From Alphaproteobacteria bacterium (GTDB lineage: Bacteria; Pseudomonadota; Alphaproteobacteria; MPNO01; UBA830), in assembly GCA_038146925.1 (NCBI GenBank), contig JAYQSP010000008.1:31901-95900 (forward strand): 64,000 nucleotides of DNA, written 5' to 3'. The translations under genes were made by a program, and so were the position numbers. Position 1 is the first letter of the stretch. The number at the start of each line of letters is the position of its first letter. A model generated the notes under the pieces. The model made no database searches, was not told the origin of the DNA, and saw only the letters and a program-made list of their open reading frames with translations. Below, in pieces: positions 1 to 33,311 of this stretch.

Positions 1-731
1 TCGTTGATGTACAGGCAGGTTAGGATCGTGAACACGTATGCCTGCAAAAACGCGATCAGCAGTTCCAGAGCGGTCAGCGCGCCGACGAACGCGAGGGGCA
101 GAACGCCCGCGGCGCCCAGCAGCGGCACGAAGCCCGCAAAGACTTTGAGAAGCGTGTGTCCGGCCAGCATGTTGGCGAACAGACGCATGGCGAGGCTGAT
201 GGGACGCGAGAGGTAGGAAATAACCTCGATCGGAATCATCAGCGGCCACATCCACAGCGGCACGCCCGGCGGGACGAAAAGCGAGAAAAAGTGCATGCCG
301 TGCTTCGCGAAACCGAGAATGGTCACCCCGGTGAAGACGACCATCGCCATGGCAAATGTGACGGCGACGTGACTGGTGAAAGTGAAGCTGTAGGGCACCA
401 TGCCGAGCATGTTCCCGAACAGGATGAACATGAACAGCGTGAAAATGAACGGGAAGTACTTGCGGCCTTCATTGCCGACCGTGTCACGAATCAGATTGGC
501 GACGAATTCGTAGCACATCTCCGCGACGACCTGCCATCGGCCCGGGATCATTGCGCGTTTGCGCGTACCGGCCAGCATCAACAGGCATATCAGCGCAACC
601 GTGATCACCATCATCAGCGCAGAATTGGTGAAGGAGATATCGTTGCCGGCAACCTCGATCGGGATCAGTTCCTTGATCTCGAATTGTTCGAGTGGGCTGT
701 GTTTCTCGCCGCCGTGTGTATCAGTAGCCAA
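1..731 (-). CDS. atpB: F0F1 ATP synthase subunit a (3' end runs off window)
   Basis: Minus-strand translation from TTG at 731 gives MATDTHGGEKHSPLEQFEIK...SRPISLAMRLFANMLAGH...FLQAYVFTILTCLYIN. Not in the ORF track because the stop lies outside the window. Confidence 0.95.
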   Translation of the reverse strand, partial: MATDTHGGEKHSPLEQFEIKELIPIEVAGNDISFTNSALMMVITVALICLLMLAGTRKRAMIPGRWQVVAEMCYEFVANLIRDTVGNEGRKYFPFIFTLFMFILFGNMLGMVPYSFTFTSHVAVTFAMAMVVFTGVTILGFAKHGMHFFSLFVPPGVPLWMWPLMIPIEVISYLSRPISLAMRLFANMLAGHTLLKVFAGFVPLLGAAGVLPLAFVGALTALELLIAFLQAYVFTILTCLYIN

Positions 732-734
732 CGG

Positions 735-1103
735 TTATTCCCCGTCTCGATCCATCTTTGTGTCTTCGGACGACCGCCGGTCCGCCGGCTTGTATCCGAT
801 CGCGCCGCCCTGGTTCTGGACGACCCGGTAGACATTGAACATTCCCGCTGCCGCCCCCAACAGGAAGAACACCAGCATGAACCATGGTTTCGTACCAAGC
901 CAGCTATCGAGCAGCAGCCCGAAACCGACCCCGATGACCAGTGCCGCGACCAGTTCCGTTCCGATGCGCATTGCAAATCCCAGACCGCCCTGTGAAGATT
1001 TAGGGTTTTCGGTCCGCCCGGCTGCAACGTCCTGTTCGCTGCGAAACCGGCGTAACCGTTCGTCCAAATCCTTATGGGAGTCCCTAGGTTCGCGCTCCGT
1101 CAT
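735..1103 (-). CDS. atpI: ATP synthase protein I (AtpZ/AtpI family)
   Basis: GLGFAMRIGTELVAALVIGVGFGLLLDSWLGTKPWFMLVFFLLGAAAGMFNVYR; lies directly upstream of atpB. Start estimated. Confidence 0.9.
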   Translation of the reverse strand: MTEREPRDSHKDLDERLRRFRSEQDVAAGRTENPKSSQGGLGFAMRIGTELVAALVIGVGFGLLLDSWLGTKPWFMLVFFLLGAAAGMFNVYRVVQNQGGAIGYKPADRRSSEDTKMDRDGE

Positions 1104-1241
1104 CGAGAATTGATGCGACATGATCTTCGCAGACGATTTCGCGCCTGCGAAAGCGAGCGCACCATACGGTGTGCCCCATACCCTGTCAACCCTCGCCTTT
1201 GGCATATAACATGTTGATAATAAACAGTAAAAAGAACTGCG

Positions 1242-4200
1242 TCAGGCTGTCTCACGGAGTCGTTCCGCGGTCTGCAGATCGACCGAAACAAGCTGCGAGA
1301 CGCCGCGTTCCGACATGGTGACGCCGTACAGGCGATCCATCCGCGCCATGGTCAGGCGGTGATGGGTGACCAGCAGGAAACGGGTGCTCGACTGACGGCT
1401 CATTTCATCCAGCAGCGTGCAGAAACGGTCGACGTTGCTGTCGTCCAGCGGCGCATCGACCTCGTCCAGCACGCAGATCGGCGCCGGATTGGTCAGGAAC
1501 ACCGCGAACAGCAGCGCCAGCGCGGTCAACGCCTGCTCGCCGCCGGACAGCAGCGTCATGCTCTGCAGACGCTTGCCGGGCGGGCTGGCGAACACTTCGA
1601 GACCGGCTTCCAGCGGATCGTCCGCTTCGGTCAGCCGCAGATGCGCCCTGCCGCCGCCGAACAGCTTGGCGAACAGTTCGCGGAAATGCTGATCGACCTC
1701 GTTGAACGCTGTCACCAGACGTTCGCGGGCCTCGCGGTTAAGCCCGGAAATCCCCTGGCGCAGCCGCGCGATCGCGGCGATCAGATCTTCGCGCTCTGTT
1801 TCCATGCCGCGGATTTTTTCGTCCAGTTCCGACGCTTCCTGTTCCGCGCGCAGGTTGACCGGGCCCATATTGTCGCGTTCGCGCTGCAGGCGTTCCAGCT
1901 TGGTCTCTACCGCGTCCTGCGGCGGCAGATCGTCTTCCTCGTCGATGCCGACGGATGACAGGCAGTCTTCCGGCGCGCATTCCAGCCGTTCGGTAATGCG
2001 TTCGGCGATCACGGCCAGCGACTGGTCGATCTGCTCGACTGCCGCTTCGCGCCGCACGCGGTCTTCGCGGGTTTCCGACAGGCGGCTTTCCCGGTTGCGG
2101 AGCTCGCGGGTCAGCTCCTCCAGCCGGGTCTCGGCGGCGGCGAGATTGTCGGCTGCTTCGTTGCGGGCGGCTTCCGAGGTTTCGATCCGGTCCAGCAGGG
2201 CGGAACGTTCGGTGGCAATTTCCTGGGGACGTGCTTTCAGCTTTTCCAGTTCGGCCGTTTCCTGCGTCCGACGGGCAGCCAGCTGTTCCAGCTGTTTCAT
2301 CGCGTTCGCGGAGCGGTTCTTCCAGGATTCGAGATCGTTGGCGATGACCTGCAGGCGCAGAATGCGCGTTTCCGATTCCTGATCCAGCCGGTCGTGCGCG
2401 CTGCGGATTTCCGCAAGCGATGTGCGTTTCCCGGCAAGTTCGACCTGTTTTTCCTCGACCGTGCGCCGCCGGTCGGCGACATCGGCAAGGCCTTCCAGTT
2501 CTTCGCGGGCCGCTTTTTCCTGCGCGTCAAGCTCGGCGACATCGGCGTTCAGGCTGTCGATCGCGTCCTTGAGACCGCTGACGCGGGATCGCGCGTCCGC
2601 TGTGCTTTCGGCCAGCGCCGAGGCGTCATCGTTGGTTTTCTGCGCGTCGGCATCGGCGGCCCACACCGCTTCGCGAGCCCGCCGTTCGGCATCCGCCGCT
2701 TCACGTGCGGCGGTGGCGGTGCGTTCTCTTTCCGCACGCGCGTCGGCGGCCTTTTTCTCCGCCGTCTCCAGTTCGTCGCGCATTTCGTCCAGCCGGTTGC
2801 GTTGGGCAAGTCGGGTGGCGGCGGCGGTTGGGGCGCCGGAAGCAGCGGTATACCCGTCCCAGCGCCACAGTGCGCCGTTGGCTGAGACCAGTCGCTGACC
2901 CTGTTCCAGGTCCGCGTGCAGGCGCTGACCCTGTTCGTCGTTTTCGACCACGCCGATCTGTGACAGACGGCGCATCAGGGCTGCCGGGCCGCGCACAAAC
3001 TCACTCAGCCGTTTGACGTTTTCCGGCAGACCGCGCGGATTCTCGAACATCGGAAGCGCGCGCCAGTGAATCGGCGATGCCTCGTCGGTTGGCGCGATCA
3101 GGTCGTCGCCCAGCGCCGCGCCCAGCGCGACTTCGTAGCCGGCATCGACTTCGACCGCGTCGATCATCGGCGGCCACAATTCCGGATCGCCGAATTCCAG
3201 AAGCTCGGCCAGAGCCTCCTGCTCCGCGCGCAGTTTCGCGGCCGCCGAATCCGCACTCTGATGCGATTCGCGGGCGTCGTTCTCGGCGGTGCGGGCCTCC
3301 GTGGTGGCGCCTTCCGCTTCCTGAAGCGCGGTGCGCGCGGCGGCGGCGGCAAGCCGGGCGTTCTCGGCTGCCTTTCGCGCCGCTTCCAGCGCGCCGTTGT
3401 CGTCGGCGGCGGCTTCGGCGTCCTGTTGTTCCTTCGCAATATTGGTGCGGCGGTCTTCGAAGCGTTTACGCCGCATGTCGAACTCGGTCAGCTGGCGGCT
3501 CAGCGTCGCGCCGCGGGTCTCGTCCGCGACCACCGACCGGGTCAGCTCCGCCAGCTCGCGCTCGCGCGCTTCCACCTCGGCCTCTGCTTCTGCCAGCCGC
3601 GCTTTCGCAGCGGTCAGGTCGTCGGCTTCGCGCGTCTGGGCGGCGCGTATTTCGGTCGCTTCGCGTTCCAGATTTCCGACCGCTTCGGCAGCGTCGCCGC
3701 CCAGCGTCTTTTCGCGCTCGGTATCGGCGTCGATCTGGGCGATACGGTTCTGGATTTCCTCGCGCAGGGATTCAATGCGGCGCTCCTCGGCATCGAGTGC
3801 GTCGCGCGCGACCATCAGCCGTTGCAGCGCCGCCGCGGCTTCGGCTTCCTTCTGGCGAAGATCGGGCAGGGCCGACGACGCTTCGGCCTGTGCCGTCGTT
3901 GCGGCGGCGACCGCCTGGGTCAGTTCGGCGACCAGCGCTTCGATATTGCCAAGCTGTTCGGCGGCGGCTTCGCGTTCGGACTGCGCCGTGGTCCAGCGGA
4001 GATGCAGCAGGATCGCTTCATGGCGTTTTATATGGTCCGACAGATTGCGGTACCGGGTCGCCTGGCGTGCCTGGCGTTTCAGCAGCCGGTGCTGTTCTTC
4101 CAGCGCACCGACCACGTCTTCCAGCCTTTCCAGATTGGTTTCCGCCGCGCGCAACCGCAGCTCCGCTTCGTGCCGGCGGGCATGCAGGCCGGTAATGCCG

Positions 4201-22026: not shown

Positions 22027-22923
22027 GTGCCGGTCACCGATCAACGCCTGGCCCTCGACGCACCGGCCAAAATCAATCTCTATCTTCATGTCGTCGGACG
22101 CCGCGACGACGGCTACCATCTGCTCGACAGTCTGGTCGCTTTCACGGAGTACGGCGACCGACTTATCGCCCGTCCTGCGGACGATCTGACGCTCCGTATC
22201 GAGGGGCCGTTCGGCCGCGGTCTGGCCGGAGCCGGCGGCGACAATCTGATCCTTCGGGCCGCCCGGGCTCTTCAGGACGCGTCAGGCGTGCGCGCCGGTG
22301 CGGCGCTCACGCTCGTCAAAAACCTTCCGGTGTCGTCGGGGATCGGCGGCGGCTCAACGGATGCGGCCGCGACGCTGCGCCTTCTCGCGCAGCTTTGGGG
22401 GTTGAACATCGATGACGCGCGCTTGTCGGACATCGGCCTGCCCATCGGGGCCGATGTGCCGGTCTGCGTCGCGGGCGTGACCTGCAGCATGAGAGGTATC
22501 GGAGAAAAGATCGTCCCGGTCGATCCGGTGCCATACTGCGCGGTGGTGCTGGTCAACGGTGGGGAAGCCGTATCGACGCCGGCCGTCTTCGCCGCGCGTC
22601 GGGGCGATTTCTCGAACGGTGCCGAATGGGAGACGCCGGACGATTTCAATCCCTTCGTCGCCGGGCTTCGAACCCGTAGGAACGATCTGGCACCTGCTGC
22701 GCGCACGGTGTCGCCTGTCATCGACGACGTCCTGGCGTCACTGGAGAGTACCGAAGGGTGCGCGCTGGCCCGGTTGTCGGGAAGCGGCGGGACCTGTTTC
22801 GGCCTGTTCGCAGATCAGTCGCGCGCGGAACGGGCGGTGATGGACATCCGTTCCAGCCATCCGGCGTGGTGGAGCGTGTCAACACATTTTCGCGCAACAC
22901 GCGCGGAAATATATCCAGAGTAA
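22027..22923 (+). CDS. ispE: 4-diphosphocytidyl-2-C-methyl-D-erythritol kinase
   Basis: APAKINLYLHV.GRRDDGYH, KNLPVSSGIGGGSTDAAA, GADVPVC, LSGSG.TCF. Confidence 0.95.
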   Translation: MPVTDQRLALDAPAKINLYLHVVGRRDDGYHLLDSLVAFTEYGDRLIARPADDLTLRIEGPFGRGLAGAGGDNLILRAARALQDASGVRAGAALTLVKNLPVSSGIGGGSTDAAATLRLLAQLWGLNIDDARLSDIGLPIGADVPVCVAGVTCSMRGIGEKIVPVDPVPYCAVVLVNGGEAVSTPAVFAARRGDFSNGAEWETPDDFNPFVAGLRTRRNDLAPAARTVSPVIDDVLASLESTEGCALARLSGSGGTCFGLFADQSRAERAVMDIRSSHPAWWSVSTHFRATRAEIYPE

Positions 22924-22937
22924 GAGACGCTTTGCGG

Positions 22938-23490
22938 TTACTGTTTGCCCGACATCGTCGCGGCGACCGCGCGGAGATCTTCCAGCAGTTCCCGGCTCGC
23001 TTTTCCGTCTGTCTCCAACCCTGCGAACTGCTGATACAGCTTGATGGCATTGGTCGTGCGCCGGCCCAGGCTGCCATCCACCGGGCCCGGGTTAAAGTTC
23101 ATCGCATCCAGCAGCGTCTGGATCTCAATGATTTCCTGTTTGCCGATCGGTTTGGCGGCGGCCGCCGCGGCAGGCGGCGGTTCCTTCGGCGCATCGGCCG
23201 CCCGCGCGGCCAGACGGGTTTCGATACGGCGCAGTCTTTCGGGCGCCTGGGCGTCGCCCTGGGCCGCGGCGCGCTCGAACCATCTGCGCGCCTGCTCCAG
23301 GTCGGGCTCGCCGGTTGTAAATCCGAGTTCGTATAACGACATGAGGCTGAACTACGATGTGCTCAATTCCGCCTAGGTGGCCTCGGTCATTCACTACTAC
23401 ATGCGGGTAATTGATCTTGGTTCCCCGTTCGTCCGCATAGGCGGCGGCCAAATTGTGCTGGTTGCGCGCCCCGTCGGCGATTCCTTGGAA
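22938..23490 (-). pseudogene. Decayed Sel1-repeat + peptidoglycan-binding domain gene (3' ORF 22938-23342 still open)
   Basis: ORF has DLEQARRWFERAAAQGD and IQTLL...FNPGPVDG.LG.RT. Upstream in frame it reads EAT*AELSTS*FSLMSLYE, and another frame has NQHNLAAAYADERGTKINY, both Sel1-like with stops or a frameshift. Confidence 0.7.
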
Positions 23491-23640
23491 GGCACATGGC
23501 ATATTCAGATCAACCACGGGCCGACTACACCTGAAAATAATTGAATGCGTGACCGGAACGTGACGCACCATCTTTTCGAAAATCCGAAGGCGAACGTTGC
23601 ATCAAAGCCCTGTGATCCGATATGTTCGCAACGCGCTTGA

Positions 23641-23715
23641 TGGGGCGTAGCCAAGTGGTAAGGCAACGGGTTTTGATCCCGTGATTCGCAGGTTCGATCC
23701 CTGCCGCCCCAGCCA
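23641..23715 (+). tRNA. tRNA-Gln(TTG)
   Basis: TGGGGCG acceptor stem, anticodon arm ACGGG-TTTTGAT-CCCGT, GGTTCGATCC T-loop, encoded CCA. Confidence 0.97.
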
Positions 23716-23768
23716 GCGACTCGCCCCTCGATAGAAGATATCGGGCAGGTCTGCTTTGTCGACCGCTT

Positions 23769-24190
23769 TCAATAAGCGTGTCTGAGCTGCTGCTGAAGAG
23801 CTTTCTGATCCGGCTCTTTCAAGAAATTCTGGCAGACTCCCGACCAGGTGAAGCTGATCGAGTTGCCGACGATATCCACATCGTATTTGTTATGGGCATC
23901 GGCATTCGGCGCCCATTTCACCAAAGCCCTAAGGCCGGCGGCAAAATTGTTCCGGTCGAGGGTGTCTTTTTTCCAGTCAGTCTGGCCGACCCGGACGGAA
24001 AAGATTTCGATTCTGTCGTCGATGTCGAATTCCTCGGACAGCTATTCTGAATTATTGGAAAATGAGCTGGTAAGGCAATCCAGCGCCGCTATGCAGAATG
24101 CCGCTTTGTCCCGCGGAGCACCCGTCTATGCCTGCGCCAGTTCGTCGAAGGCCGGTTATAAATTCACGTCCTTTCGGACCGCATTTATAT
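23769..24190 (-). pseudogene. Decayed gene fragment of unknown family
   Basis: One minus frame reads protein-like over ~140 codons (EEFDIDDRIEIFSVRVGQTDWKK...KYDVDIVGNSISFTW) with host-like codons but three in-frame TAA/TAG stops. Confidence 0.5.
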
Positions 24191-24215
24191 GAAATTCAGA
24201 CTTATCTATCCTTTT

Positions 24216-25073
24216 TTAATATTCCTTGGCCTTGCGGAATGTTTGGGCCTCACGGAGGCGAAATAAGCCATCTGACAAGACCATATGCGGCACGGTCAAT
24301 CCGGCAAGTCCAATGAAAACTACCCTAAGCAAAGCTGATTCTAGAGGCATTGCCAAGGCACACCACCACCAAGCAACGCCGCCCGCACTCCAACTTACTA
24401 AAGTTAATAGCAATGCCTGGGTGTAAAGCGTACGCCTCAGCATGATTGTTTGGACCGATTGCCAAATGCGCCTCATATGTCGAGGAGAATGTATACAGCA
24501 AAAATAAAACGCGAAGCCGACGAGTGGAGGTACTTGCGAAAATAATATGAGCAATAGTGAAAGTTCTAAAAACCCGGCCCGCCAGCGATTGGTCCGAAGT
24601 GCCCGCCACCCATAGATACCTAATGACACCACCATGATCGCGGAAAATATGTCAATTGCAATCCAGACAGGACTAGTCATATCGCCAGAAAGAAAGGCGA
24701 AAACCTTATCAACTGCGGCCCTATGACTTTGGCTGATGCCCGCTACAACAACACCCCCATGGGCGAATGTCTGTACCCACCTAAACCATCCGCCGCTGAC
24801 ACGTGCATCGCCAAAACCAAAGTGGATAATGCTTATAGCTAAAAACATTATCAATGACGCGGCAGGGAACAACAGCCAAAGACAAACAAATAAAATAGCA
24901 AGCCCGATGTAGAGCGCAGCAAAACCCAAAAAAAATGTTAAGCGCCTAGAATGACCCAAATAGGTTGCAACCGCTCCGTCAAAAGCACCATGCGGCAAGC
25001 CAATTACTACCACAGCCATAACGGCTACCAGATTAGCTATGCCGAAATTGGCAATAAGAGTTTCTAGTGCCAT
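24216..25073 (-). CDS. blh: Beta-carotene 15,15'-dioxygenase (Brp/Blh family)
   Basis: IGLPHGAFD, SIIHFG, YFCCIHSPRH, LTVPHM; membrane protein at the end of the crt operon. Confidence 0.93.
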   Translation of the reverse strand: MALETLIANFGIANLVAVMAVVVIGLPHGAFDGAVATYLGHSRRLTFFLGFAALYIGLAILFVCLWLLFPAASLIMFLAISIIHFGFGDARVSGGWFRWVQTFAHGGVVVAGISQSHRAAVDKVFAFLSGDMTSPVWIAIDIFSAIMVVSLGIYGWRALRTNRWRAGFLELSLLLILFSQVPPLVGFAFYFCCIHSPRHMRRIWQSVQTIMLRRTLYTQALLLTLVSWSAGGVAWWWCALAMPLESALLRVVFIGLAGLTVPHMVLSDGLFRLREAQTFRKAKEY

Positions 25074-25078
25074 TCGCT

Positions 25079-26254
25079 CTATCTAGTTGGCGCTTTAGAG
25101 CGGGGGTAGTTCGGTGCCAGTCCCGACCAGTCCAGCAGATACAATGCCGTTGCTTTGAAAAACACCCATTTAGGCATCGATAGAACCACTTTCACCCTTA
25201 GTTTCCAGTTAGCTTCACCGCTAAGGAAGAGCGCAAATTCATCGCCACTAAGCTCGCGTCCCATCCGCAGAAATAACTCAGCTGCCACACTAGGCCAATT
25301 GCGCAAAACAGTGACAAACAGCTCATCCATCCAAAGATCAACCGGTTTATGGGGGCACCTCACCAGCAATGGCGATCCATGCGGAGTATCTTCAGCATTA
25401 GCGGCAGCAAGCGTCGCTGCAATTTGTTTTTGGATAAATGAAAAGGCATAACCGCTAGAAGGCCGAACCGCCCCACCATTGGCGCCAATCCCAGTATAAG
25501 CCGAAACTTTATTTGGTAACCGGCCAAGCGGTATGGCACCGGCTTCGGTGCTGGTAATTTGAAATTTTTCTACTCCATGTTCTGCGAATAGATAGTCTCG
25601 AATTGCAGACTCAAAAAAAATATCTGGTTCGCGGTGTTCGGCAAACATCGTAGATTCAACAAGCGCAGAGCTGGTCGAAAACGGCAACAGGTAAATGAAA
25701 TGTATGCCGCGCGATTGATCGCACCTAAAATCCATTAAGATTGCGGTTGTTGGATCAAAACTGCCGCTTGCTGCCTTTACCTCCCAGCCGATGAAATGTT
25801 GGATCATCTGGCCATTAGGCAGCTGGGGGGGGCGGCTATCAAGAATCTGAGCCGCGGGATCAGGTTTTACGACATTTTGAGAGGCAAATTCCACACCATG
25901 CTTGGCTGCCTGCTGGCGGCAATGCGTCTCCCATATGCGCCGTTGCAGCGCGTGATAGCTATGAACTACCGAAGTCATAACCACGCTGCCCGCCGACGTT
26001 TTAATAGACCACTTTGACCATTTATGCCGGGCCAGCCCAGCGGCTACCTCTAATCCTTTAACCCTCCAAAACCCCCAGACATGGTCTTTGACCCTGGGGG
26101 CATTTTTAGGGGTGATAACGGTAATTCTGTGGTGCGGCAACGCATTCGCTTGGGCGGCAAGTGATAGACCTGCGCACCCATCCCCCAGGACATGAACTGG
26201 TTGAGTCAGATGCAGCGTGTCGCGCCTGGCCGATTCGACCAGCCTAGCTAGCAT
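25079..26254 (-). CDS. crtY: Lycopene beta-cyclase
   Basis: VLGDGCAGLSLA, QHFIGWEV, LMDFR.DQ..GIHFIYLLPFS...ALVEST, RPSSGYAF. Confidence 0.9.
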   Translation of the reverse strand: MLARLVESARRDTLHLTQPVHVLGDGCAGLSLAAQANALPHHRITVITPKNAPRVKDHVWGFWRVKGLEVAAGLARHKWSKWSIKTSAGSVVMTSVVHSYHALQRRIWETHCRQQAAKHGVEFASQNVVKPDPAAQILDSRPPQLPNGQMIQHFIGWEVKAASGSFDPTTAILMDFRCDQSRGIHFIYLLPFSTSSALVESTMFAEHREPDIFFESAIRDYLFAEHGVEKFQITSTEAGAIPLGRLPNKVSAYTGIGANGGAVRPSSGYAFSFIQKQIAATLAAANAEDTPHGSPLLVRCPHKPVDLWMDELFVTVLRNWPSVAAELFLRMGRELSGDEFALFLSGEANWKLRVKVVLSMPKWVFFKATALYLLDWSGLAPNYPRSKAPTR

Positions 26255-27164
26255 GTGGCAGCCCTTTCAGGTGAATATGTAACTCCTGATCGTGGGGTCC
26301 GGGGTGCGACATTATACGTGTTGGAAGACTGCTAAACGCAATTATTGAACAGCACAATTTTGAAGTTTTACTGGTGACTTGGCGCCCCTCATGCCAAGCG
26401 TATCCGCGTCTAGCCAGCTGGACTCCAATTTGGCGGTAAATCAGCCCCGCCACAGCGATACCCAGATGCGCTCGCCACGGTAAATATCGATACCCACGCG
26501 CTCCGCTCATGTAAAATTTATCTGCGAGTTTTAATAACCGTTTTACTGCGGCACGAACTTGTTGCGCGGCCAGTCCATCCGGTTCCCTAGCCGCAAGGCA
26601 GATTGCGTCAGGTGACAAATCATTTACCCACTCACCAGGAATGTATCGACGCCCCATTAGGGCATCCTCAAAAACGTCGCGGGCGATATTTGTTAATTGC
26701 ATTCCGATCCCGAGGTCAACGGCATAAGCTTTGGCCTTCGTATCAGCGCACTCCAACACGTCACACATCAGCAATCCAACGGTTCCCGCAACTCGATAGG
26801 CATAGACGAGCAAATCTGCTTCACCTGAGAGACAAACCTCATTAGCCGAGTCCTGAAGCAGTCCTTCTATTAAAGCAGTCAGAACGTCTTGCGAGAATTT
26901 CATATCACGCATAAAGGGCTGAAACTTGGAAAAGGCCGGATCATCGCTGGATCGATTTTGGCTGAGGTCTGCATGAATAATTTTCAGACGCTCGGTCCCA
27001 TCAGGAACATCGCTATCAGCCATATCATCCAAAAGGCGGCAAAAAGCATAGAGACGCGCCGCATTATGCCCCATCCGGCTACCAAGAAATCGACTCGCCC
27101 AATAAAAGCTTTTGCCGTTTGACCTCAACGAATCCTGAGGTTCTAACTTTTCGTTAGAAATCAT
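26244..27164 (-). CDS. crtB: Phytoene synthase
   Basis: GKSFYWAS, LYAFCRLLDDMAD, YRVAGTVGLLM, LGIGMQLTNIARDV.ED...GRRYIP. Confidence 0.94.
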   Translation of the reverse strand: MISNEKLEPQDSLRSNGKSFYWASRFLGSRMGHNAARLYAFCRLLDDMADSDVPDGTERLKIIHADLSQNRSSDDPAFSKFQPFMRDMKFSQDVLTALIEGLLQDSANEVCLSGEADLLVYAYRVAGTVGLLMCDVLECADTKAKAYAVDLGIGMQLTNIARDVFEDALMGRRYIPGEWVNDLSPDAICLAAREPDGLAAQQVRAAVKRLLKLADKFYMSGARGYRYLPWRAHLGIAVAGLIYRQIGVQLARRGYAWHEGRQVTSKTSKLCCSIIAFSSLPTRIMSHPGPHDQELHIHLKGLPHAS

Positions 27165-27211
27165 TCAGATATCTTTTAACCATGATCGACGCCAGAAGAA
27201 TGGTATCTTAG

Positions 27212-28741
27212 CTATCGAGGCTTAAGCGCCTGCTCTTCTTCATCAATAAGTGCTCTAACTACTTTAGCAGAACACAGTACGCCGGGTATTCCCGCACCTG
27301 GATGTGTACCCGCACCAGCAAAATACAGGTTTGGGATATGTGGGTCGCGATTGTGATAACGAAACCAAGCTGATTGTGAAAAAATTGGAGAAATTGAAAA
27401 TCCTGCACCGTGCATTGATCGGTAATCGGACTTAAAATCTTCGGGTGTCATCCAGAAATCATCGCTAATTACGTCTTCCAATCCGGGCATCATGGATTTA
27501 CTGAGAGCGGCGACAATTCGATTGCGCAAATCTGGACCCTTGACTTTCCAATCCACATTACCGAGCAAATTTGGCACTGGACACAAAGCATAAAAACTAT
27601 CGCACCCTTCTGGAGCAAAGCGAGTGTCAGTCGCAGTTGGTCTGTGCAAGTACAGTGAAAAGTCATCTGCCAGCACTTTGCGGTCAAAAATATCGGCGAG
27701 TAATTCCTTATAGCGTGGCCCCATCCAAATGGTGTGATGTGCGACATCGCTATATTGCTTTCGGGTTCCAAAAAACAACACATACAAACCCATAGAATAC
27801 TGCGTCATCGATTCAGGGAGCGCACGCTTTCTCTGGTTCGCACCGGGTAACATCTGGGAATAGACCGTTGGCGGATCACCGTTACAAATAATCCGCTCTG
27901 CCGCAAAAACTTGGCCATCAACGGCGCGGGCACCCGTTGCGCGGCCCTCGTGAAGGCTGATTTCCGCGATATCTATGCCCAACCGTACTTCCACCCCGAC
28001 CCGTCTAAGCAAAGAGTGTAACTCCGTCACCAGCTTGCCAGTCCCACCCATACAAAAGAACACACCCCAGCGGCGTTCGAGATAGTGGATCAGGCTGTAG
28101 ATAGAAGTAGTGGTGAATGGATTTCCGCCAACCAGCAATGGATGAATTGAGAAAGCCTGCCGTAATAATGGATGCTTTATATGACTGTTAACGATCCCCG
28201 CAACTGTCCTGTAGCTACTTAATCGCAACAGCGACGGCACCTGCGCTGCCATCGTCCAGAATTTAACAAAAGGCCTCGCTGCAAGTTTCTCAAAACCAAC
28301 CTCAAAAATATCCTTTGAGGTTTGCAGTAGCTTAGCGTAGCCCGATACATCGGGCGCATGAAACCGCCTAATCTCGGCATTCGTATCCTCAATCGATGGG
28401 CGATAGTCAAACTGACGGCCATCATGAAAATGAAACCGATACCATGGATCAAGTGGCTTGAAATCAAGGTGTTCTTCGCGGCGCTCTCCAAATAATGCGA
28501 ATAACTCATCAAATAAGAATGGCGCAGTAATAACTGTTGGCCCAGCATCATGTCGAAAGCCACCTTTTTCGAAAACCTGAGCGCGGCCACCTATCGCTTG
28601 CAGTCTGTCAACCAACGTAACCGAATAGCCTTTAGCACGCATTTGTAGGGCGACCGCAATCCCGCCAAAGCCAGCTCCAATCACCAAAATGTCGCTCTTG
28701 TGCCTTAGAGATTGGTCAGAAATATCACTGGAAGAACTGAT
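27212..28741 (-). CDS. crtI: Phytoene desaturase (start probably non-canonical ATC at 28741; first TTG is at 28687)
   Basis: ILVIGAGFGG, DAGPTVIT, HPLLVGGNPF, DDFSLYLH.P, GAGTHPGAGIPGVLCSA. Confidence 0.94.
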   Translation of the reverse strand: MSSSSDISDQSLRHKSDILVIGAGFGGIAVALQMRAKGYSVTLVDRLQAIGGRAQVFEKGGFRHDAGPTVITAPFLFDELFALFGERREEHLDFKPLDPWYRFHFHDGRQFDYRPSIEDTNAEIRRFHAPDVSGYAKLLQTSKDIFEVGFEKLAARPFVKFWTMAAQVPSLLRLSSYRTVAGIVNSHIKHPLLRQAFSIHPLLVGGNPFTTTSIYSLIHYLERRWGVFFCMGGTGKLVTELHSLLRRVGVEVRLGIDIAEISLHEGRATGARAVDGQVFAAERIICNGDPPTVYSQMLPGANQRKRALPESMTQYSMGLYVLFFGTRKQYSDVAHHTIWMGPRYKELLADIFDRKVLADDFSLYLHRPTATDTRFAPEGCDSFYALCPVPNLLGNVDWKVKGPDLRNRIVAALSKSMMPGLEDVISDDFWMTPEDFKSDYRSMHGAGFSISPIFSQSAWFRYHNRDPHIPNLYFAGAGTHPGAGIPGVLCSAKVVRALIDEEEQALKPR

Positions 28742-28770
28742 AGGTTTCTCCCGTAGTTTCTCTGGAATGG

Positions 28771-29823
28771 TTATTTCGCGTTGTATGAAGACACGACGAG
28801 ATGTGGTGATAGCGCGGTGGCTGGTTTTTTACAAATTTGCTGCAGCATTTGTTGAACCGGCATAATCACGTTGACGAGCTCGGCGGGCTGCGCCGCTGCC
28901 AGCTCCTCGCTCTCCCGCAGCATTTTGAGCATCTTTTGAGCCGCAAAATGCATAGCAGAAGACTCGATGATCTTGCTTTGCCACGCTTTAAGATTAACAT
29001 TGCAGTCGGCCTCATACCAATTTTCAAAATCGGCTTTTATCGGCTCATCCAGCATCTCATGGTAGAGCACAGTAACCGCATTTGGTCTGCGCCGTCCGAG
29101 GTCTGAAGCAATGGCCTCGGCGCCATCGTCACCCATAAAATTGAGAATATCATTAGCGATCTGGTAGGCGTTTCCGAGACATCGGAAATAGGCGCCTATG
29201 CTTGTCATCATACCGCCATGTAGTCCCATATTAAGCACGCCTTCCAATGGTGCTGTTAATAAAGGGGCTGTTTTATCGGCAGAAATTTGTAAATAGTCAC
29301 GCCAACTACATATTCGCTGCATATCGAATTCACATGCCTCTCCGAGGGTCGTTATTTTCATGTGACTGGCTAGGATTTTGACGAGAATTGGGGTGTGCGA
29401 CCGTTGTGCCGCTTCCGCCGCTAGTTCAAATGACAAGGCAATCATCCAGTCACCCAGAGCTAATGCAACATTACTGCCGTATTGCGCATAGACCGAAGGG
29501 CGTCCTCGACGGAACTGGTCGCCGTCGCATATGTCATCATGGACTAATGACGCATTATGCATCACTTCAACTGCGACCGCCCAATGCAATGCTGCTGCCT
29601 CGTCAACAGACAGCGCAGATGCTGCCCTTAACGCCATTTTTGCTCGCAGCATCTTGCCGGTCTTGGTGAAGTGATAGGCCGCGGCTTCAGCAAGGGGTTG
29701 CCCCGGGTTCGGAAGACGGGATGCGACGAAGCTAACTAAATAATCACTGGCAGAAGTTCGTAATAAAGAGGCCGGCTCGTTGTCTGCAAGGTGGTCACTC
29801 ACCGCTGGTGACAAATCTTTCAT
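28771..29823 (-). CDS. crtE: Geranylgeranyl pyrophosphate synthase
   Basis: GKMLR, VEVMHNASLVHDDICDGD..RRGRPS, KTAPL, YQIANDILN; first gene of the crt block. Confidence 0.9.
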   Translation of the reverse strand: MKDLSPAVSDHLADNEPASLLRTSASDYLVSFVASRLPNPGQPLAEAAAYHFTKTGKMLRAKMALRAASALSVDEAAALHWAVAVEVMHNASLVHDDICDGDQFRRGRPSVYAQYGSNVALALGDWMIALSFELAAEAAQRSHTPILVKILASHMKITTLGEACEFDMQRICSWRDYLQISADKTAPLLTAPLEGVLNMGLHGGMMTSIGAYFRCLGNAYQIANDILNFMGDDGAEAIASDLGRRRPNAVTVLYHEMLDEPIKADFENWYEADCNVNLKAWQSKIIESSAMHFAAQKMLKMLRESEELAAAQPAELVNVIMPVQQMLQQICKKPATALSPHLVVSSYNAK

Positions 29824-29941
29824 GGTGCCTGCCTGGTTATTTTATCGTATTTTCCCGTTCGGCGTCGCTGGACACTCCACAGATGGGACGGGTTCCATTT
29901 ACGGTTAATAAATAATTTCGGCGGAGTGTTTGTGACAAATT

Positions 29942-29974
29942 AAAAAAGAAGGGGCGGCCTAATTAGGCCACCCC
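29942..29974 (-). terminator. Rho-independent terminator of the proteorhodopsin gene
   Basis: Minus strand GGGGTGGCCT-AATT-AGGCCGCCCC followed by TTCTTTTTT. Confidence 0.85.
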
Positions 29975-29981
29975 AACTATT

Positions 29982-30767
29982 TTATTTAGATGCTTCGCTT
30001 TCGGTAACAGCCACATTCCAGATAATCACCCCGAACGCTATCTTGTTCAGAACGTCAGCGAGGTTATAGATCACGTTAAGTGAATTCGCCGCAACTGATG
30101 GGTCACCCGCAAGAAGGTACCCGTAGAAATAACCTATCGGGTATATCGCCCAGCCAATAGTCACGATCCAACGCATCAGAGAAAAAGCCGACTTAACCGA
30201 CGCTGGCGCTTTCTCGGCTGACATCTTGCCAGCTTCACCTAGGAAGATTTCATAGAGGATGTAAGCCCAACCAACCATGCCAATAACAAAGCCGAGCGTC
30301 GCATTGATGTAACCAACTTCGCCGGCGTAACCGCCCAGAAGCATGACCAATGTACCAATCATCAGCTTCCAGAATATCCCGCCCGACGCGCTGCCAACGG
30401 CCCGAAGGATCAGATAGAATTCGACCATCAGCAACGGCACGGTAATCAACCAGTCAATGTACCGGTAAACTGTTGGTGTTTCACCCGTGCTCACCCACAC
30501 GTCACGCATGTAGAAATAGTGCACAGCAGCAACCAGAGTTACCAGACCAGACACTGTTAGTGACGTCTTCCACTTTGCTGAAACGCGCTGTGTTTCAATA
30601 AAGAAAAACGCTGTCGCCGCGACAAGCGCCATAGAGATCAACCAAAATGAAATGCCAACATAGTCGTCAGACTTAAGATTTGCGTCTGCGGCAAATGCAC
30701 TTGTTGGTGCAACAAGCAATGTCGCCATCGCCAGCGCAGCAGATTTTTTGAAAAACGTGATGTTCAT
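29982..30767 (-). CDS. Proteorhodopsin (DTE proton pump, green-tuned L105)
   Basis: Signal peptide; VHYFYMR (His75 equivalent); RYIDWLITVPLLMVEF (D97, T101, L105, E108); YNLADVLNKIAFG (D227, retinal K231). Confidence 0.97.
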   Translation of the reverse strand: MNITFFKKSAALAMATLLVAPTSAFAADANLKSDDYVGISFWLISMALVAATAFFFIETQRVSAKWKTSLTVSGLVTLVAAVHYFYMRDVWVSTGETPTVYRYIDWLITVPLLMVEFYLILRAVGSASGGIFWKLMIGTLVMLLGGYAGEVGYINATLGFVIGMVGWAYILYEIFLGEAGKMSAEKAPASVKSAFSLMRWIVTIGWAIYPIGYFYGYLLAGDPSVAANSLNVIYNLADVLNKIAFGVIIWNVAVTESEASK

Positions 30768-30901
30768 AACTTTCCTTCCCTCCGTTGTTTATCGGGAGTA
30801 ATTTAAGTTACGCCCCGTGGTTAAAGCAAATATTTTCGATATCTCATGATTCTCTGCATTTTTAAGGTTCCCAGCATTAATTCAAAGACTTTTTTATCCG
30901 G

Positions 30902-31155
30902 TCTTATATCGCCGTGCTGGTAACACCGGAAATCGCCGGTCTGACGTACGTGACCTTAGGTCTGGTGGACGCAGGCGGCGAACCGTGGTTCGGCATTATC
31001 GATAGTTTTAGGTTAGGGATTGTCAGTATGGTGCCTGCCTGATGTCGATGCTGGTGGTCAAGTTGATCACACCGGCGCCGAATCTGGGAACGCAGGCGAT
31101 AGTGGATGAGATCTGTAAGCCTTCGGGCAAGACGCCCCTCGATCGGGCGCACTAG
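30902..31155 (+). pseudogene. Remnant of a sodium:solute symporter (ActP/VC_2705-like)
   Basis: IAVLVTPEIAGLTYVTLGLVDAGG resembles the family motif VLATPEIAGLPYVISGLVAAGG. It is fused to EPWFGI... and then, after a frameshift, VVKLITPAP...QAIVDEI.KPSG*. Confidence 0.75.
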
Positions 31156-31178
31156 ACCGCACCGATTGAAGGAACCGT

Positions 31179-31209
31179 CGGGGGCGGATGTATTTCCGCC
31201 CCCGTTTTT
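31179..31209 (+). terminator. Rho-independent terminator after the symporter remnant
   Basis: CGGGGGCGGA-TGTATT-TCCGCCCCCG-TTTTT. Confidence 0.85.
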
Positions 31210-31224
31210 CGTACAAGGAGTCCC

Positions 31225-31587
31225 ATGAAAAACCCCGCCGCCATCTTCCCGATCTGGGTGATTGCGATCGACTATATCCTCGGTTTGATCATGTGGACGC
31301 TGATCGGCAGGGTGGCGATGAATATCTTTCTGCCCGAAAACTCGAACTTCTTTTTCATGAAGTTCTTCGTCCGGTCCACCGATCCGCTTATCCGGGTGTT
31401 CAGGCCCATCACGCCCGGGTTTCTGGTTCAGCCGATGGTGCCGCTCTACGTCGCATGGTTCATTTTCATGTTCCGTTTTTATGCCATGCCCTGGTTCCTC
31501 GGATATTCGGTCATGGGAATGCTGTCCTTTCCGCTGGAAGGCGAAATCGCGGCGACGATCTATCAAATTCTGTCTCCGAGGCCCTGA
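31225..31587 (+). CDS. YggT-like membrane protein
   Basis: AAGGAG SD; DYILGLIMWTLIGR...RSTDPLIRVFRPITPGFL. Confidence 0.65.
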   Translation: MKNPAAIFPIWVIAIDYILGLIMWTLIGRVAMNIFLPENSNFFFMKFFVRSTDPLIRVFRPITPGFLVQPMVPLYVAWFIFMFRFYAMPWFLGYSVMGMLSFPLEGEIAATIYQILSPRP

Positions 31588-31594
31588 ACCGGCT

Positions 31595-31834
31595 ATGTCC
31601 AACGACATCACGATCCTGGACGCGACGGGCCTGCGGTGCCCGCTGCCCGTACTGCGAGCGCGAAGGATGCTGAAGGATGTCGCGCCCGGGGAATTGCTGG
31701 ACGTGTTTGCTACCGACAAAGCCGCGCCTGCCGATTTCGAGGCTTTCTGTCGCGAGACCGGGCACAGCCTGATCAACATCGAACAGGTCGGCGAGATTTT
31801 CCAGATCCGGGTGAAAAAAGCGGGGCCCGGGTAG
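31595..31834 (+). CDS. TusA-family sulfur carrier
   Basis: LDATGLRCPLPVL, ATD..A.ADF.AFC..TGH. Confidence 0.9.
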   Translation: MSNDITILDATGLRCPLPVLRARRMLKDVAPGELLDVFATDKAAPADFEAFCRETGHSLINIEQVGEIFQIRVKKAGPG

Positions 31835-31838
31835 TCGC

Positions 31839-33311
31839 TCAGCTGCGCACCCCTCTGGGAACCACGGCGCGCTCCGCCAGTTCGAACAGGCCCTGTGCCG
31901 CCAGCGCCATGACCGCAGCGGGGACGGCGCCTTCGAGAATCAGCGACGTATCGTCCAGCCGGATTCCGGTCAGGATGGGTTGGCCGTATCCGCCGGCCCC
32001 GATCAGCGCGCCCAGCGTGGCCGTGCCGATATTGATCACCGCCGAGGTTTTGATCCCCGCCATGATCGACCGCATGGCAAGCGGCAGTTCCACCAGGCGC
32101 AGCCGCGCCCCGTCGGCGAGGCCCATTGCGCGTGCGGATTCCACGATTGCCGGATCGATCCCGAGCAGCCCGGCCTGGGTGTTCCGGACGATCGGCAGCA
32201 GGCTGTATAGAAACAGCGCGACCACGGCGGGCGGACCGCCAATGCCCAGAAACGGGATCATGAAGACGAACAGCGCCAATGACGGGATCGTTTGCAAAAT
32301 GCCGGTCAGTCCCAGAATGATCTGGCCGAAGCGCCGGTTTCGTGCCGCGGCGACGCCCAGCGGAATGGAAATCAGGATCGCCGCCCCCAACGACAGGCCG
32401 ACCAGCACCAGGTGATCCAGCGTGGTCCGACACAGGCGCTGGCCCATGGTCTCGGTCGCGATGGCCCCGGCTGTTCCCGTTTTTGCGCGGACGAAATCCG
32501 CGGCGACGGACGCTTCCGTCTTCCTGTCGATCTTCACGGCGGCGTTCATCGCGGACATGGCGCTGCCGTCGATCGCGTTCTCCATCTCTTTCAGGGCCGC
32601 CTCAACACGGGGCAGACGTTTGGCCAGATCGGCGCGATACAGGAAAACCGCTTCGTAGGCGGGGAAATGATCCAGATCGTCTTCCAGCACATGCAGCTTG
32701 TAATAGGCGATCTCCGCATCGGTGGTGTAGACGTCGATGGCGTCGATACTGCCCCCCGCCAGTCCGCGATAGGCGAGGTCGTGATCCAGGCCTCGGGCAT
32801 TCGCCAGGTTAAGACCGTATTTTTGCCGCAGCGCCGGCCAGCCGTCGGCCCTATCCATGAATTCGTTGGAGAATCCCAGCGCAAGACCGGTATGCGGGCG
32901 GAGGTCGGAAATTTTCCTCAGCCCGTATTTTTCGGCCGTCTTTGCCGTGACGCCGATTGCATAGGTGTTGTTGAATCCCATCGGCGCCGTCATGCGGATG
33001 CCCTGCCGGTTCAGCGCGATCCGCATGGCATCCATCCCGTCGATGTTCCGGTCGGCAAGCAGTTCCTGGGAAATCGTGCCGGTATATTCCGGATATATGT
33101 CGATGTTGCCTTTAAGCAGGGCTTCCCAGAGCACCCGGGTGCCGCCCAGCTCGCGGCGGTGACGGGCGGATTTTTCCGACGACTTGACCAGCTGACGGGC
33201 GATTTCTCCCAGGATCACGGATTCGGTGAATTTCTTGGACCCGATAGTAACGTCCTGCGCCTGCGCCGGCAGGGTCCAGGCCAGAACCGCGGCGATCAGC
33301 AGGAATCTCAT
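31839..33311 (-). CDS. Osmoprotectant (glycine betaine/choline) ABC transporter, fused substrate-binding/permease
   Basis: IGSKKFTESVILGE, IYPEYTGT, GFNNTYA, FPAYEA; QTIPSLAL, EAA loop ESARAMGL. Confidence 0.9.
   Translation of the reverse strand: MRFLLIAAVLAWTLPAQAQDVTIGSKKFTESVILGEIARQLVKSSEKSARHRRELGGTRVLWEALLKGNIDIYPEYTGTISQELLADRNIDGMDAMRIALNRQGIRMTAPMGFNNTYAIGVTAKTAEKYGLRKISDLRPHTGLALGFSNEFMDRADGWPALRQKYGLNLANARGLDHDLAYRGLAGGSIDAIDVYTTDAEIAYYKLHVLEDDLDHFPAYEAVFLYRADLAKRLPRVEAALKEMENAIDGSAMSAMNAAVKIDRKTEASVAADFVRAKTGTAGAIATETMGQRLCRTTLDHLVLVGLSLGAAILISIPLGVAAARNRRFGQIILGLTGILQTIPSLALFVFMIPFLGIGGPPAVVALFLYSLLPIVRNTQAGLLGIDPAIVESARAMGLADGARLRLVELPLAMRSIMAGIKTSAVINIGTATLGALIGAGGYGQPILTGIRLDDTSLILEGAVPAAVMALAAQGLFELAERAVVPRGVRS

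Follow-up and report, generated by a model that had tools for sequence, protein, structure and literature searches.

A SAR116-type proteorhodopsin and retinal-synthesis cassette between the stumps of two host genes in a high-GC alphaproteobacterium

How does a complete set of genes for rhodopsin-based phototrophy come to lie close to a tRNA gene in a genome whose base composition it does not share, and is anything keeping it there? The question is raised by a proteorhodopsin (PR) cassette in a 64,000-nt stretch of an uncultured alphaproteobacterium (assembly GCA_038146925.1, contig JAYQSP010000008.1, positions 31,901 to 95,900), here called the window. Plain coordinates refer to this whole stretch; its genome is G000, with contigs designated C, related genomes are G001-G041, and L numbers denote loci or contigs. 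On the evidence below, it is very probable that the cassette is a PR-retinal photosystem of the type found in SAR116 (Puniceispirillaceae), acquired horizontally by integrase-independent recombination and then kept under purifying selection.

The cassette consists of six minus-strand genes at 24216-30767, PR, crtE, crtI, crtB, crtY and blh, all without internal stops (Table 1). This set and order had been read from the letters alone in an earlier note on this DNA, and the open reading frames (ORFs) and profile matches bear it out: all six proteins score above the cut-off for the expected Pfam family, and the crtI_fam and blh_monoox matches pass their NCBIfam cut-offs as well. For crtE, crtB and crtY the right NCBIfam models matched only below their strict equivalog cut-offs. 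Homologues of CrtI align from residue 14 onward in tblastn, and the true crtI start may lie downstream of the listed TTG. The gene order is collinear with SAR116 loci, and the rhodopsin is the only one in the whole G000 genome. A terminator-like hairpin lies 8 nt past the PR stop, between PR and the crt-blh genes, and the genes from crtE to blh are closely spaced, crtB overlapping the start of crtY by 11 nt; because of this arrangement the layout is most likely a PR unit followed by a separate crtE-crtI-crtB-crtY-blh operon. A scan for sigma-70-like promoters gave no excess, with 9 sites against 8.8 expected. The suggestion that idi is missing holds for the cassette, which has none, but not for the genome: G000 lacks a type-1 idi and carries a type-2 idi at C11:1063802-1064791 (405 bits, above cut-off). 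Some 3 kb separate the latter from a low-GC island (C11:1050001-1061000), in which there is an integrase match at 1052012.

What the insertion displaced can be seen in L173, a cassette-free contig of 4,853 bp from a metagenome-assembled genome (MAG) labelled uncultured Rhodospirillaceae. Three of its segments align with the window: L173 1-370 with 31340-30972 (89% nucleotide identity), 717-817 with 30979-30879 (83%), and 2701-3381 with 24140-23461 (87%, in a block that includes tRNA-Gln). L173 has two intact, divergently transcribed genes, one for a 603-aa sodium:solute symporter (186-1997, minus strand; PF00474, 179 bits) and one for a 216-aa protein of no known family (P0164, encoded exactly by this contig), the latter also intact in the same-family genomes G006 and G016. 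The host DNA lost from the window comprises the 5' halves of both genes and the promoter region between them. The remnant of the 216-aa gene matches residues 93-215 and contains two TAG stops, minus-strand 23772-24041 being 76% identical to P0164 over 90 aa; a six-frame reading finds three in-frame stops within 24042-24215. The symporter stump has an additional deletion of 346 nt near 30975, flanked by short similar repeats, and its last 37 codons persist as an open ORF (31042-31155) with a 40-codon homologue in G001; a conserved small gene was considered for this ORF and rejected, as it is the C-terminal stump of the symporter that is intact in L173. The "gene wreckage" that had been taken as the sign of neighbours decaying around an intact cassette is therefore real but of another origin: it is the 3' stumps of two host genes, made by the insertion itself and not by slow decay, and so it provides no clock for selection.

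The relatives tell the same story about the site. In all six loci compared (four congeners and two same-family genomes) the order of electron transfer flavoprotein-ubiquinone oxidoreductase (ETF-QO), tetratricopeptide repeat (TPR) protein, ispE and tRNA-Gln, then tusA and/or a major facilitator superfamily gene, is kept, and in none of them is there a cassette at the orthologous site, nor is there one in L173; a cassette shared by all relatives at this locus, which the earlier note had named as grounds for giving up its reading, is thus not what is seen. In G001 only 322 bp separate tRNA-Gln from yggT. The stretch past tRNA-Gln occurs in five different states in the six loci, and this site is variable across the family; in G008 (L109:8296-9949), genes for a lower-GC GNAT acetyltransferase and a NeuB-family protein directly follow the orthologous tRNA-Gln. 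The YGGT-like gene of the window, the first intact host gene on the right, is 70% identical to that of G001 and 97% identical to that of L173 over 38 aa. The nearest named relatives of the neighbouring TPR protein (62-72%) come from MAGs labelled Alphaproteobacteria or Pseudomonadota, followed at 38-48% by Thalassobaculaceae, Caenispirillum and similar taxa. Between ispE and tRNA-Gln, at 22924-23640, lie overlapping ORFs of 192 and 148 aa without a Pfam match; this region shows only weak similarity in relatives, and L173 departs from the window left of 23461.

In base composition the cassette stands apart from its host. Per kilobase, GC content is 48-52% across 24001-31000 and 58-69% in the rest of the window, and GC at third codon positions (GC3) is 0.46-0.55 in the cassette genes versus 0.72-0.82 in seven flanking genes. 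The cassette as a whole has 49.4% GC against 60.5% for G000 (3.75 Mb, 12 contigs), so that the contrast noted earlier stands while the 64% then given for the flanks is slightly high. The tetranucleotide correlation of the cassette with its own genome is 0.36, within the lowest 3.3% of 1,232 host windows of the same size, for which the median is 0.97; with the flanks of two Puniceispirillum loci it is 0.88 (L033) and 0.82 (L013). The cassette is not unique in this respect: the genome has some 20 further low-GC islands. Its largest contig begins with 71 kb (C11:1-71000) at about 30% GC, which could be a very large foreign island, a mis-join or a contaminant.

Where the cassette belongs is indicated by its proteins. 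The nearest named cassettes for all six are in Puniceispirillaceae/SAR116 MAGs (L013-L016), even though three of the four congeners (G001, G002 and G004) carry a PR cassette of the same gene order at other loci; in all, PR is present in 7 of 41 related genomes, G000 included. Identities to the SAR116 MAGs and to the three congeners, respectively, are 82-85% and 56-57% for PR, 55-58% and 35-37% for CrtE, 78-80% and 61-62% for CrtI, 52-60% and 41% for CrtB, 51-54% and 34-35% for CrtY, and 45-50% and 29-31% for Blh; one further PR, P0006, is 89% identical to that of the window. A PR tree of 87 rows places the window with L013-L016 and L033 in a SAR116 clade (Shimodaira-Hasegawa-like approximate likelihood ratio test, SH-aLRT, 92/90), far from the congeners. 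In a 46-row tree of CrtI, CrtB, CrtY and Blh, the window is sister to L014-L016 (support 99) inside an eight-row clade (100), and the congeners form a clade of their own (100). An approximately unbiased (AU) test rejects the window and the congeners as one clade (p 7.6e-5, delta lnL 142). The PR and Crt trees are thus not congruent with the host's kinship, the other outcome that had been held to speak against transfer. Absent from the site in relatives, foreign in composition and incongruent in phylogeny, the cassette is foreign to its host, and both trees and the tetranucleotide signature assign it to the SAR116 type, a lineage of which would be the donor. Acquisition en bloc from a lower-GC marine lineage, as originally suggested, agrees with the identities, the trees, the AU test, the composition and the comparison with L173. 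The L014-L016 loci, although labelled Puniceispirillaceae, have 57-61% GC with cassettes that match their flanks (58-62%), unlike the Puniceispirillum loci L013 and L033 at 46-50%.

How the cassette arrived is suggested by its left border and by a sister copy. This copy fills most of L206, a metagenome contig of 7,338 bp that contains the whole cassette at 90.1% nucleotide identity over 6,654 nt, with protein identities of 94.6% (PR), 92.9% (CrtE), 95.8% (CrtI), 87.3% (CrtB), 90.0% (CrtY) and 85.9% (Blh), and its homology to the window stops at the same left border. There, the 9-nt motif CTGGCGCAG (minus strand) is common to the cassette end in L206, the host gene in L173 and the window: the window follows L206 up to the motif and the host gene of L173 from the same motif onward. 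Such a junction would be the signature of microhomology-assisted illegitimate recombination. Upstream of PR, L206 encodes the N-terminal part (130 aa) of an IS6-family transposase (NF033587, 102 bits), and downstream of blh an rve_3 C-terminal remnant of IS3/IS481 type; its flanks are remnants of two different insertion sequence (IS) families and not a canonical composite transposon, a context that hints at IS-associated carriage but is no proof of how the window copy arrived. At the borders of the window cassette we found no IS copies and no terminal inverted repeats with a target-site duplication; flank fragments compared by tblastx with all loci and the genome gave self matches only, and L206 was the only match of the junction sequences among all loci. 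Our proposal is that the cassette entered this uncultured high-GC host after its split from a close relative that retained the ancestral site, by integrase-independent, illegitimate or microhomology-assisted recombination, in which 6.7 kb of foreign DNA would have taken the place of 1.9 kb of host DNA, made up of the 5' halves of the divergently transcribed symporter and 216-aa genes; an IS-associated element may have served as the vehicle.

Table 1. Features of the cassette and of the adjoining host DNA (window coordinates)
Feature	Position	Strand	Evidence and remarks
tRNA-Gln (UUG), host gene	23641..23715	+	ARAGORN; tRNA columns invariant versus G001, G003, G004
Host pseudogene, C-terminal ~123 codons of 216-aa hypothetical family	23769..24143	-	in-frame stops; 5' part removed
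Left junction, 9-nt microhomology	24132..24140		three-way alignment; blastn end points
Foreign cassette, 6,738 bp	24141..30878	-	replaces 1,883 bp of host DNA (L173 818-2700); blastn versus L173
blh, beta-carotene 15,15'-dioxygenase (makes retinal), 285 aa	24216..25073	-	PF15461 (BCD) 176 bits; TIGR03753 (blh_monoox) 214 bits
crtY, lycopene beta-cyclase, 391 aa	25079..26254	-	PF05834 (Lycopene_cycl) 143 bits
crtB, phytoene synthase, 306 aa	26244..27164	-	PF00494 (SQS_PSY) 170 bits
crtI, phytoene desaturase, 491 aa	27212..28687	-	Amino_oxidase 122 bits; TIGR02734 (crtI_fam) 545 bits
crtE, polyprenyl (geranylgeranyl diphosphate) synthase, 350 aa	28771..29823	-	PF00348 (polyprenyl_synt) 137 bits
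Intrinsic-terminator-like hairpin	29951..29974	-	10 pairs, 8 GC, T run; consensus scan only
PR, 261 aa; DTE, L105, predicted signal peptide	29982..30767	-	PF01036 (Bac_rhodopsin) 161 bits
Imported PR upstream region (promoter and 5' untranslated region)	30768..30878	-	20-nt core identical in L206
Host pseudogene, C-terminal remnants of 603-aa sodium:solute symporter gene	30879..31155	+	alignment with L173
Host terminator hairpin of former symporter gene	31179..31204	+	conserved in G001
YGGT-like host gene, first intact on right	31225..31587	+	PF02325 23 bits, below 27-bit cut-off
tusA, host gene	31595..31834	+	PF01206 73 bits

Three other origins have to be weighed against integrase-independent acquisition. 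The nearness of tRNA-Gln, whose 3' end lies 425 bp from the foreign DNA and 500 bp from the blh stop, might suggest the cargo of a tRNA-Gln-targeted integrative island that has since lost its integrase and attachment (att) sites, and the changeable post-tRNA stretch of the relatives, including the lower-GC genes of G008, as well as the integrases carried by several other low-GC islands of G000, would fit such an element. We nevertheless consider this unlikely, as the tRNA and the insert are kept apart by the host remnant of the 216-aa gene (87% identity to L173), and the insert ends within two host coding sequences. PF00589 has no match in the window (there are 12 elsewhere in G000, several of them in other low-GC islands), the neighbours of the cassette show no recombinase domain in a Pfam scan, although serine recombinases were not searched for, and the tRNA 3' end is not repeated at the far border of the cassette. 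The sole candidate att site, a 13-nt repeat at 23722 and 31133, was rejected, each copy having a counterpart at the G001 site, which has no cassette. The absence of an integrase and of an att duplication had already been remarked upon and is upheld by these searches, whereas of the association with tRNA-Gln only the proximity stands: because host sequence separates the two, the adjacency is probably incidental. A native, vertically inherited cassette, with a low GC content peculiar to its genes and loss in the relatives, is more improbable still. Phototrophy is common in the genus, to judge by the three congeners with the same PR-crtEIBY-blh order, and the cassette of G001 is likewise lower in GC than one of its flanks; but the congeners' cassettes are at other loci and only 29-62% identical, a single clade with them is rejected by the AU test, the site is empty in all six relatives, genes truncated in the window are intact in L173, and the GC3 and tetranucleotide signatures are foreign.

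Least probable of the three is a chimera of assembly or binning in which a SAR116-like fragment was joined to a high-GC genome. Apart from the sharp change in GC at both cassette ends, it could appeal to short-read contigs, which break inside tRNA-Gln, a shared repeat of high depth, in all four sequencing runs compared, and to run X7, in which the cassette contig has a depth of 10.1 and both flanking contigs 17-18. Both true junctions, however, are crossed: single contigs bridge 24140/24141 and 30878/30879 in each of the four runs, which represent four studies and include none flagged as a possible source of the assembly, and one contig of 7,568 bp spans 23640-31207. A lack of reads across the junctions had been named earlier as the sign of a chimera; these contigs speak against one. 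Depth over host and cassette is equal in the other three runs (13.5/11.6/12.7, 22.6/24.8/25.5 and 16.5/17.9/18.6), and host gene stumps adjoin the cassette on both sides. The lower depth in X7, the only run with a contig break at 31178-31207, possibly reflects a co-occurring strain without the cassette. The cassette, with its six genes and two borders, is thus physically linked to host DNA.

Such linkage is not confined to one sample, and the cassette shows purifying selection. The identical PR sequence is recorded from 56 contigs, and 126 PRs cluster with this one at 90% or more. Twenty runs from 14 studies contain at least 65% of the words sampled from window 22800-31900; their labels are marine, seawater, estuary or salt-marsh metagenome, and five of the runs are flagged as possible sources. 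The cassette genotype occurs widely in metagenomes from estuaries, salt marshes and coasts. Against L206, pairwise ratios of non-synonymous to synonymous substitution rates (dN/dS) are 0.07-0.21 for all six genes (dS 0.27-0.34), and among the four runs there are 11 coding single-nucleotide polymorphisms (SNPs), eight synonymous and three non-synonymous. These ratios and the excess of synonymous SNPs show purifying selection on the cassette; the earlier note was right to see selection here, albeit not in arguing from decayed neighbours. Run X13 differs from the window by six clustered substitutions within 45 nt just upstream of the PR start (30770-30811), and in three of the four an additional T stands six nt before the crtE start (29829); both are strain variation in what are likely translation-initiation regions.

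Several points weigh against horizontal acquisition from a SAR116-type source as we propose it. Since contigs break inside tRNA-Gln, the link from the tRNA to ispE rests on 30-nt overlaps, the assembly itself and L173. The dN/dS ratios, being pairwise, cover both lineages and any time before the transfer. Both trees come from quick searches with SH-aLRT support only, the crt tree under LG+G4; many rows of the crt tree have a deviant composition, and it retains 45 of 86 loci, those with all four genes at sane length, with 41 dropped and crtE excluded. The tree was already known when the AU test was made, although the group tested was defined by kinship (same genus). Protein identity to the nearest named cassettes is only 45-85%, and the direct donor is therefore unsampled; bins labelled Planktomarina, among others, also contain PR cassettes of this clade, and SAR116 may be only the ultimate source. 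The ETF-QO of G041, the bin that contains L173, is 76% identical to that of the window, compared with 85-88% in the congeners, so that either G041 is not a close relative or L173 is mis-binned; G041 was accordingly rejected as the closest relative genome, and its missing rhodopsin and crtI matches therefore say nothing. Finally, microhomology is seen at the left junction only, and no donor sequence extends past the right one.

The properties of the photosystem can be predicted by comparison with solved rhodopsins. The PF01036 match of the window PR covers profile positions 4-223 of 224, and 138 rhodopsin sequences in the PDB were matched, the best being another microbial rhodopsin (9r22, E 3.8e-86). 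The solved green proteorhodopsin (GPR) 8cqc was matched at E 6.5e-84 and aligned residue by residue. In GPR numbering, from which the deposited PDB chain deviates by one position, H75, R94, D97, T101, E108, D227 and K231 all have their equivalents: the D97-T101-E108 block of helix C, which forms the acceptor and donor motif, aligns column for column, and the Schiff-base lysine K231 and the counter-ion D227 align in the helix G motif. Leu, not Gln, is aligned with L105 of GPR, and the helix E Phe of the window PR aligns with the sole Phe in helix E of GPR. According to PMC9325082 and PMC10807816, Leu or Gln at position 105 sets green or blue colour. The preprint 10.1101/2022.08.24.505090 states that GPR 31A08 has Phe at the position of xanthorhodopsin 156 and that with Phe or Trp at this place no carotenoid antenna is possible. 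Gly is not found at this position in the window PR, as judged through the helix E alignment with GPR and not from xanthorhodopsin itself. Both details given earlier, DTE with L105 and Phe at the fenestration position, thus recur in the alignment to the solved protein, the second also with the help of that source. We predict a green-absorbing proton pump without a carotenoid antenna, its activity and colour judged by residue equivalence. The crtE-crtI-crtB-crtY-blh genes would turn the farnesyl and isopentenyl diphosphate of the host into beta-carotene, to be cleaved to retinal, and PR with retinal would then act as an outward light-driven pump in need of no external chromophore.

The congeners raise the further question of how stable rhodopsin phototrophy is within the genus. 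Their cassettes (L008 in G002, L009 in G001 and L010 in G004) share 65-75% nucleotide identity and lie in three different contexts with nothing in common outside the cassette. At the place corresponding to the G002 cassette, G000 shows no interruption, the two flanks being separated by about 670 bp (C6:268965-269634). Searches by tblastn, genome-wide at E 1e-3 and in C6:1-22000 at E 1, found no remnants of a genus-type cassette in G000 and matched only housekeeping polyprenyl and phytoene/squalene-synthase-like genes; the substitution of the SAR116-type cassette for a genus-type one in the lineage of the window is therefore put forward only as something that possibly happened. Beside the PR of G004 (L010:7536-12272) are genes for an Fpg/Nei-type glycosylase, a glutathione peroxidase, a BLUF blue-light sensor and an amine-oxidase-like protein, the G000 homologues of which (66-87%) are in two low-GC islands, C6:10171-13882 and C2:71359-72135, one of them beside tRNA-Ser and a broken integrase. 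One may go further and suppose, tentatively and with the odds against it, that phototrophy in this genus is a repeatedly exchanged, IS-shuttled module and not a stable trait. The grounds are that two unrelated cassettes occur in four contexts among five genus genomes, that the 90%-identical copy of L206 lies between IS6 and IS3/IS481-type remnants, and that G000 has an intact IS6 transposase with 77% protein identity to that of L206. The latter is on contig C5, together with one IS6 fragment; the fragment (C5:1146-1244) and the intact copy (C5:33972-34559) bracket a low-GC region of about 30 kb (C5:5501-35500), a layout that resembles a composite transposon.

The event itself is clearly an expected, ordinary case of a well-known type of gene transfer, because the lateral spread of the PR photosystem as one linked set has been in print since 2005-2010 (PMC1175822, PMC2860489), with PMC3380642 on the same theme. 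Among the titles listed by a literature search on PR transfer with transposases or islands, none was on this lineage. What is unusual is the resolution: both junctions are placed to the nucleotide, the ancestral site is kept in a relative, and two host genes were sacrificed. To this are added the microhomology at one junction, the near-identical copy in an IS context, and congeners with a different cassette. The locus is a clean natural example of the entry of a whole phototrophy module into a genome and of its retention, and the 6.7-kb cassette, predicted to be self-sufficient for retinal, is a ready construct for expression tests.

Among known systems, the closest parallel is in Vibrio sp. 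AND4 and V. campbellii BAA-1116. For these, PMC2860489 describes the lateral acquisition of PR, crtEIBY and blh as linked genes, PRs that group with those of alphaproteobacteria, and transposases bordering the gene clusters. Here, too, a linked PR and retinal set was acquired by a host whose relatives lack that set, and transposase genes flank the L206 copy, albeit of the IS6 and IS3/IS481-type families instead of the IS5/IS903 of the Vibrio clusters. The window differs from the Vibrio clusters in being without a transposase, in having junctions that cut into two host genes and delimit, to the nucleotide, a replacement of 1.9 kb, and in its recipient, an alphaproteobacterium whose congeners already carry another PR cassette. 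With classical tRNA-linked islands the cassette shares a compositional anomaly, absence from relatives and a tRNA nearby, but it has no integrase and no att duplication, and it was inserted inside host genes 425 bp from the tRNA. The predicted pump resembles the green PRs 8cqc, 7b03 and 2l6x in DTE, L105, the H75/D227/K231 equivalents and the Phe at the antenna position, although it is another protein than 8cqc and its properties are predicted from sequence. Finally, the cassette is like the SAR116 cassettes L013-L016 and L033 in gene order and in its clade in both trees, and like the Puniceispirillum flanks in composition; it differs from them in a protein identity of only 45-85%, and whereas the SAR116 cassettes have the GC content of their flanks and look resident, that of the window lies 11 points below its genome.

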